Origin: a virus
Taxonomy: Duplodnaviria > Caudoviricetes
Strand: one strand, 5' to 3'
Virus record (IMG/VR): IMGVR_UViG_3300028591_000086
Span: 1 to 64,000 of that record
Length of the DNA stretch: 64,000 bases
Translations under genes and position numbers: made by a program
In this document: piece by piece, positions 39,765 through 39,859 of the stretch
Numbering within the stretch: the first letter of the stretch is position 1
Layout: the number at the start of each line of letters is the position of its first letter
The notes under the pieces: generated by a model
Told to the model about the DNA's origin: nothing
What the model saw: only the letters and a program-made list of their open reading frames with translations
Database searches by the model: none

Positions 39765-39859
39765 TTTATATTATATTTGTGACATAGTGTAGAAAGAACT
39801 CAGTGGCGTGGATATATAAAAGCGTTACGACTGATAGTAAATCTATGCGAAAAAGCTTA
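39765..39859 (+). ncRNA. TATATTAT-type promoter plus conserved structured 5' leader, copy 1
   Basis: Homologous to 57717-57817, with compensatory base-pair changes. Confidence 0.7.

Follow-up and report, generated by a model that had tools for sequence, protein, structure and literature searches.

The RNase III sites of phages T7 (R0.3-R1.3) and SP82 are proven cleavage sites located between the cistrons of long transcripts, and Panganiban and Whiteley reportedly described, in 1983, the processing sites in early mRNAs of the Bacillus phage SP82 (cited in PMC4838370). In lambdoid phages, the put and nut sites lie just downstream of early promoters and promote read-through of downstream terminators. 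For stabilisers of the E. coli ompA type, Emory et al. are said to have found that 2-4 unpaired nucleotides are tolerated.

Stem-loops at the 5' end stabilise mRNA (review PMC3997798, with references to Emory et al. 1992), and B. subtilis RppH needs at least 2 unpaired 5' nucleotides (PMC3997798). In the Bacillus phage AR9, early promoters follow the consensus AAATATATATTAT-N6-G(+1) and serve the virion RNA polymerase that the phage injects (Lavysh et al. 2017, PMC5312081); the early core is written ATATTAT, followed by 6 nt and a G start, and the late consensus is AACA-N6-T(A/G) (PMC5312081). Jumbo phages of the phiKZ/AR9 group transcribe their genome with their own polymerases from known promoters, while their post-transcriptional control is almost unknown, and we found no shared structured leader described in published work on AR9 or phiKZ transcription.

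Source phage and copies of the leader

We analysed the initial 64 kb (hereafter the window) of the 195-kb IMG/VR record IMGVR_UViG_3300028591_000086 (G000; 195,466 bp, 29% G+C, completeness estimate of about 70%). Judging by its genes for a tail sheath (phiKZ gp29-like), a tail tube and a large terminase, the source is an uncultured phiKZ/AR9-like jumbo phage. The record also holds an RNA polymerase beta-like gene at 173 kb and a beta'-like gene at 98 kb, and no RNase III gene was found in its 195 kb. Matching DNA in public runs came from ruminant gut metagenomes.

A first-pass annotation of the window had reported an element present twice, as two segments aligning over about 95 nt upstream of unrelated genes. 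The alignment was recovered with 84% identity, and its 29-nt 5' block occurs 2 times in the window (in these two copies) against 0 occurrences expected by chance. The count of two had to be revised: searching the whole record by BLAST and then with a covariance model yielded three matches and none elsewhere, all on the plus strand, the second and third copies being almost identical.

39765-39859, plus strand: copy 1, within the window
57717-57817, plus strand: copy 2, within the window
147171-147266 of the record, plus strand: copy 3, beyond the window

The covariance model also retrieved an orthologue of copy 1 (86 bits) at L033:1301-1381(-), on a related metagenome contig whose sheath protein is 86% identical to that of the window.

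An early-type promoter in front of each copy

Each copy is made of two parts, an early promoter of the AR9 type as judged by its motif, and a hairpin that is specific to the three copies. The core and spacing of the AR9 early promoter, in the form TTTATATTAT-N6-G, are found in all three copies and in L033.

39740-39780, plus strand: early-type promoter of copy 1, fitting the AR9 early consensus and conserved in L033; T/A-rich upstream tract TTTTTATTTAAA, core TTTATATTAT at 39765-39774 and 6-nt spacer at 39775-39780
39781-39786, plus strand: predicted +1 (G39781, by the AR9 spacing rule) and 6-nt unpaired 5' tail GACAUA
57692-57732, plus strand: early-type promoter of copy 2; core at 57717-57726, spacer at 57727-57732, PWM score 29.2
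39708-39719, minus strand: late-type promoter AACA-TTTAAA-TG of the tail sheath gene, fitting the AR9 late consensus and kept in relatives (context, outside the leader)
57677-57688, minus strand: late-type promoter AACA-TTTTAA-TG of a 693-aa gene (55567-57648), read from the sequence (context)

The first-pass annotation had taken the whole repeated interval as leader RNA. Its first 16 nt or so (TTTATATTATATTYRT; 39765-39780 in copy 1) are instead promoter and are not specific to these loci, since the core recurs upstream of many genes, usually preceded by TTTTTATTTAAA about 13 nt upstream. In the record, we scored 16 sites with a PWM that have both the core and the upstream tract, ahead of SD-plus-start sites. 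At 13 other early-type sites, the start codon follows the predicted start by 13-60 nt (mostly 13-22), against 96-101 nt in the three leader copies; the hairpin is thus an add-on and no component of the promoter.

By the AR9 spacing rule, transcription of the three copies would start at G39781, G57733 and G147187. Likeness to the AR9 promoters likewise suggests early timing of the leader transcripts, and the earlier placing of the element on early transcripts agrees with the fit to ATATTAT-N6-G, by analogy of sequence. The early promoters of copies 1 and 2 stand back-to-back with the late-type promoters of diverging structural genes, and the gene that follows the copy 3 unit has an AR9-like late motif, AACA-N6-TG. 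Core, spacing, about 16 recurrences and back-to-back AACA-N6-TG late-type motifs all resemble the early promoters of the AR9/phiKZ group. This likeness covers the promoter part only, AR9 early promoters not having been described with a shared structured leader, and timing and polymerase would carry over to this phage by analogy.

Several further promoter motifs were observed. Upstream of the sheath gene (window 39700-39725, minus strand), AACA-N6-TGAC persists in relatives whose sheath identity is as low as 48%, and was seen in L033, L034, L036, L039 and L040-L045; examples from relatives are AACATTTAAATGAC, AACATCTTAATGAC, AACATTCTTATGAC and AACATCAATATGAC, which fit the AR9 late consensus. 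An early-promoter-like motif, CATATTATATTACT-G (window 2630-2715), with a predicted start at 2658, immediately precedes the tRNA at 2657-2715. The upstream tract of copy 3's promoter directly adjoins a strong terminator hairpin of 13 pairs with a T-run, at 147118-147146 of the record (L032:4118-4146), and the same layout of a terminator followed by an early promoter is found at about 116196(-) of the record and at 40148-40220 of the window.

A conserved interrupted hairpin

Folded alone, the hairpin takes one fold in all copies, and RNAalifold returned the identical 18 pairs, which reproduces the one long interrupted hairpin of the first-pass annotation. It comprises 62-63 nt with three helices (8, 5 and 5 pairs) and extends from +7 to about +68 of the predicted mRNA.

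39787-39848, plus strand: copy 1 hairpin, on which folding and RNAalifold agree
39787-39794 / 39841-39848, plus strand: copy 1 outer stem
39795-39799 / 39835-39840, plus strand: copy 1 asymmetric internal loop AGAAC/UAGUAA
39800-39804 / 39830-39834, plus strand: copy 1 middle stem
39805-39809 / 39822-39826, plus strand: copy 1 inner stem
39810-39821, plus strand: copy 1 terminal loop, 12 nt, A/U-rich
39827-39829, plus strand: copy 1 bulge ACG, on the 3' side
57733-57801, plus strand: copy 2 predicted +1 (G57733), 5' tail and hairpin (57739-57801; folding z = -2.8)
147254 of the record, plus strand: 3' end of the copy 3 hairpin

The stems came out as they had been read from the letters: GUGUAGA/UCUAURC in the outer stem, UCAGU/ACUGA in copy 1 versus UCUAU/AUAGA in copy 2 in the middle stem (two double changes), and GGCGU/GCGUU versus GGGGU/GCCUU in the inner stem (one C-G to G-C swap), closed by the A/U-rich loop of 12 nt, which folding also returned. 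An alternative register of the outer stem, CAUAG/CUAUG, is broken in copies 2, 3 and L033. The 3-nt ACG bulge is present as described, and its supposed conservation fails in a further copy from related phages, where the bulge is UC or UU.

The internal loop had been likened to a loop E/sarcin-ricin motif. In copies 1, 3 and L033, this holds as a sequence signature of the bulged-G type, with GAA (39796-39798) opposite AGUA (39836-39839) in the right orientation to the flanking helices. Copy 2 deviates: on the 5' side it has one extra A and a G>A change, so that AAAAAAAC replaces AAGAAC, with an inserted base and without the G of the sheared G·A pair. Because the bulge varies (ACG, UC or UU) and copy 2 is without the G of GAA, sequence-specific recognition is not required at these places.

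Thermodynamic stability is modest, with z = -0.8, -2.8 and -2.1 for the hairpins of copies 1, 2 and 3 folded alone. When the full-length leaders of copies 1 and 2 were folded, competing structures appeared and the hairpin was not always the minimum-energy structure. The case for the hairpin rests on covariation, support from stability being weak. Each copy contains 5-6 G·U pairs, which work on the plus strand only, and folding of the reverse strand did no better than that of shuffles; the fold is thus specific to the plus strand, on which the downstream genes also lie.

We compared the whole window with Rfam 15 at gathering thresholds, and the sole match was the tRNA at 2657-2715. In E-value mode, copies 1 and 2 gave a best E of 1.1, with all bit scores far under the family thresholds, which agrees with the first-pass annotation, where the leader could not be assigned to a known family.

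Covariation

The alignment comprised four full sequences (copies 1-3 and L033), representing about two independent lineages. With the third copy and the orthologue included, 71 of the 72 pair cells (98.6%) are standard pairs, against 31-53% when the 3' partners were slid by 1-3 columns. Three pairs changed on both sides (A-U/U-A, G-C/A-U and C-G/G-C) and four switched between wobble and Watson-Crick. Every substitution in paired positions keeps its pair, in the four sequences as well as in a variant assembled at contig ends (see below). In copy 1, 5 of the 17 core pairs are mismatches when the sequence is read as DNA. Among the changes, those on one side of a pair are neutral for plus-strand RNA only, and the pattern as a whole supports the proposed selection on RNA structure.

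When the 11 differences between copies 1 and 3 were placed at random within the hairpin, 17 of the 17 core pairs were kept in about 0.6% of trials (p of about 0.006), a thin statistic coming from about two lineages. The four differences between copy 1 and L033, taken alone, gave p of about 0.16, which is not significant.

Genes and terminators downstream

39849-39881, plus strand: copy 1 A-rich spacer with conserved RCUUA and SD AGGAG at 39870-39874, read from the sequence
39882-40127, plus strand: copy 1 gene, 81 aa, from the ORF list and covered by an RNA-library contig
40148-40184, plus strand: intrinsic-terminator-like hairpin with T-run at the end of the copy 1 unit, from a terminator scan
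57802-57828, plus strand: copy 2 spacer with GCUUA and SD AGAGG at 57817-57821, read from the sequence
57829-58350, plus strand: copy 2 gene, 173 aa, from the ORF list

Between the hairpin and a free SD lie about 20-25 unpaired A-rich bases. The SD sites are strong and either free or located in a loop, and full-leader folds of the three copies gave no shared alternative pairing that would sequester the SD; such a pairing exists in copy 2 only, and an SD-sequestering switch was rejected. We also rejected a riboswitch or RNA thermometer, as there is neither a U-tract 3' of the hairpin nor a shared alternative SD pairing; the riboswitch ranks lower because an expression platform is missing. A leader peptide was discarded (a short ATG frame occurs in copy 1 only), as were antisense or target sites elsewhere in the genome (chance 11-13-mers only).

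Copy 3 heads a gene of 184 aa at 147286 of the record. On comparison, the proteins of 81, 173 and 184 aa are mutually unrelated, as had been stated for the genes behind copies 1 and 2, and searches against PHROG, Pfam and Atlas gave no match or lead for any of them. The units of copies 1 and 3 contain one gene, with an intrinsic-terminator-like hairpin just after it, and the next genes have promoters of their own, among them a separate early promoter at about 40207 after the copy 1 terminator. For copy 2, the terminator scan was empty; a T-run and a variant late motif, AACT-N6-TG, follow the gene, and this unit is probably monocistronic too. From the sequence, all three leader genes look monocistronic.

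Beyond the copy 1 terminator, a 164-aa ORF starting with GTG is listed at 40138-40632. Its start is probably the ATG at 40240, with AAGGAGG 8 nt upstream; the resulting ORF has a membrane-like N-terminus (MRLFIVLLFFAVL) and its own early-type promoter (core at 40207), and lies between the terminators at 40148-40176 and 40638-40670.

Contigs from other samples

We aligned contigs from one sheep-gut RNA library and three DNA metagenomes to positions 39300-40700. Positions 39792-40065 are matched without mismatch by an RNA-library contig that begins in the hairpin and extends into the 81-aa gene; the contig's 5' end lies 11 nt downstream of the predicted +1, with the reservation that RNA contigs cannot define transcript ends and may reflect DNA carry-over. 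A second RNA contig runs from the sheath gene to 39696, 12 nt short of the predicted late start. The stretch between them (39697-39791) has no RNA contig, though DNA runs cover it; stretches without RNA-contig cover in run X2 were not counted as absence. The gap over the promoter is a weak hint; the pattern agrees with leader and gene being co-transcribed from a start that lies upstream of the hairpin. The element had been proposed to be a cis-regulatory leader or a small RNA: the RNA contig continuing into the gene would place the leader on the gene's mRNA, and the small-RNA half of the proposal was dropped, there being no terminator 3' of the hairpin.

In the sheath gene, the main DNA contigs of three related populations diverge from the window by about 5%. 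Among the alignments listed for these main contigs, no substitution occurs in 39765-39946 (at least 20 weaker alignments exist besides). Over the leader, DNA coverage goes up two- to three-fold and contigs break, a pattern that a repeat would be expected to give. Loose contig ends of related phages provided one further copy, with the inner stem GAGGU/ACCUU and a UC or UU bulge, in which two more inner-stem pairs go from wobble to Watson-Crick (G·U to A-U and U·G to U-A). DNA runs also contained contigs joining a copy 3-type upstream tract to a copy 1-type leader or gene, from which leader copies appear interchangeable between loci.

Nucleotide identity between the window and L033 is 91% in the sheath gene, 93% in the leader hairpin, 56% in the spacer and 46% in the 81-aa gene. 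By these comparisons, the leader is the last conserved block ahead of a fast-evolving or exchanged early module. A mosaic boundary at about 39850 confounds the contrast between leader and gene, and leaders exchanged among the copies could remain uniform without functional selection. The boundary itself is sharp: to its left (sheath gene, promoters and leader) identity to L033 is 90-93%, to its right (spacer and both small early genes) it is 45-56%, and it recovers at the terminase end at about 40680.

Interpretation of the leader

Together, the sequence comparisons support an RNA structure that is specific to the plus strand, heads three putative early-type mRNAs at their 5' end and is added to an ordinary early promoter. 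The motif is new in that it is uncatalogued, with no Rfam family, and of a known kind in that it is a structured 5' leader. We see an even chance that it is a portable cis-acting recognition element bringing three early mRNAs under shared post-transcriptional control, a reading that includes processing of the RNase III type. The portable expression cassette would consist of the ordinary early promoter and the 62-63-nt interrupted hairpin. On the mRNA, the hairpin would serve as a cis-acting RNA recognition element for a trans-acting protein, which may be an RNA-binding protein of phage or host origin or else an RNase III-type nuclease specific for double strands. Its binding would control, as one group, how stable three unrelated small early mRNAs are, how they are processed or when they are translated. 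Both this binding partner and the regulatory effect are what we infer; a trans-acting factor is favoured over a passive block because of the conserved architecture (helix lengths, bulge position and loop sizes), the AGUA/GAA signature and a stability that is only moderate. A repeated, structure-constrained leader on a subset of early mRNAs would offer a concrete handle on post-transcriptional control in these phages, in the form of a compact promoter-plus-leader module that evolution has reused before different genes.

Going further, this jumbo phage, which runs its own transcription, may have a dedicated post-transcriptional regulon with the hairpin as its operator, a proposal that we regard as unlikely. 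A phage protein, or a hijacked host ribosomal or RNA-binding protein, would dock on the loop E-like internal loop and so mark a chosen subset of the early mRNAs made by the virion polymerase for timed shut-off, protection or localisation, and the cassette would have been moved by recombination ahead of fast-evolving accessory early genes. If true, this would be the first structured RNA "address tag" described for phiKZ/AR9-like early transcripts.

Within the recognition-element reading, RNase III-type processing is a sub-case that we hold to be doubtful. The host enzyme would cut in or beside the internal loop, releasing a 5' hairpin of about 55 nt and creating a new mRNA 5' end just before the purine-rich spacer and SD. 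The presence of such a spacer with a strong SD behind the hairpin fits this proposal. So does the shape, with 8 pairs below and 10 pairs above an asymmetric internal loop (about 18 in all), which recurs with its sequence conserved at several sites of the early RNA and recalls the early processing sites of T7 and SP82. There too, the early RNA of a virulent phage carries a number of interrupted hairpins that are related in sequence, about 60 nt long and provided with an internal loop, and the likeness to SP82 extends to the host, also a low-GC Gram-positive bacterium. Known phage sites are intercistronic, however, whereas the leader hairpin heads one-gene units, at 6 nt from their predicted 5' end, and cleavage there is only conjectured; its duplex of 18 pairs is divided into three short, G·U-rich helices by a 5/6-nt internal loop and a 3-nt bulge, and, with no such gene in the phage sequence, the enzyme would have to come from the host. 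If cleavage is left aside, the hairpin might slow 5'-end-dependent decay (RppH with RNase J1, or RNase E) without any specific partner. Its position at the 5' end of the predicted transcript, before a free ribosome-binding site, is that of the E. coli ompA/papA and B. subtilis stabilisers, and 5' stem-loops are an established stabilising device (PMC3997798). We nevertheless find a purely passive stabiliser improbable. The leader differs from these stabilisers by its low stability, by its occurrence as a family on unrelated genes and by a conserved internal architecture, whereas a passive block needs no conserved internal loop, bulge position or loop length. The predicted tail of 6 nt (GACAUA), which depends on the position given to +1, exceeds the 2-4 unpaired nucleotides of the ompA type and would suffice for B. 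subtilis RppH. Leaders of 13-22 nt serve for most of the phage's early genes.

The location of several copies right behind the early promoters of unrelated genes is also that of putL/putR in HK022 and nutL/nutR (boxB) in lambda, few-copy RNA elements that act in cis, and the phage has its own multisubunit polymerases, to which the hairpin could signal co-transcriptionally as a pause or anti-termination element. This we judge highly improbable: the units of copies 1 and 3, and probably that of copy 2, seem to end at their first terminator, which leaves nothing to read through, and a single hairpin is unrelated to the two-stem put fold and shows no Rfam similarity. Finally, the repeat might have no RNA function and be a duplicated or recombining promoter cassette or a DNA operator, its covariation being luck in a tiny sample. 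The existence of only about two lineages, the exchange of copies between loci, the location of the leader on the conserved side of the mosaic boundary and the modest z-scores would all allow this. We consider it quite improbable, since three exact double changes and no broken core pair among the 11 differences between copies 1 and 3 are not readily given by chance (at the p value given above), wobble/Watson-Crick switches are neutral for plus-strand RNA only, 5 core pairs of copy 1 would be mismatches as DNA, the reverse strand does not fold, and the promoter occurs without the hairpin at 13 other sites.

Occurrence in related phages

To delimit the distribution of the leader, the copy 1 region was searched by blastn against GenBank phages, with no match. 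Scanning IMG/VR for exact matches to four leader motifs, and GTDB genome contigs for one, returned only chance or coding coincidences, as assessed with the covariance model and by eye. A locus search based on the sheath protein found nothing in IMG/VR and genome contigs; in JGI metagenomes it produced 15 loci, with the leader in L033 alone (86% sheath identity). Relatives with a sheath identity of 68% or less, viewed over 10 kb on each side, have a different sequence at the position of the leader. Among IMG/VR, GenBank phages, GTDB contigs and the JGI loci, the element is found in a close clade only (sheath identity of at least 86%). About 14 closer sheath homologues were present in Logan/ENA.

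A weak model match at L042:3654-3734 (E = 0.64) was rejected as a homologue, as it is a different, near-perfect intergenic hairpin without promoter. In this distant relative (48% sheath identity), the 75-nt hairpin (plus strand; -21.8 kcal/mol, z = -5.1) sits between a stop codon and the SD of the next gene, and could be an intercistronic processing or stability element.

In L034 and L039 (66-68% sheath identity), the slot of the leader and the 81-aa gene holds instead a small Cys/Gly-rich ORF with many TGT/TGC codons, located about 120-400 nt upstream of the sheath gene on the opposite strand, which may encode a peptide precursor.
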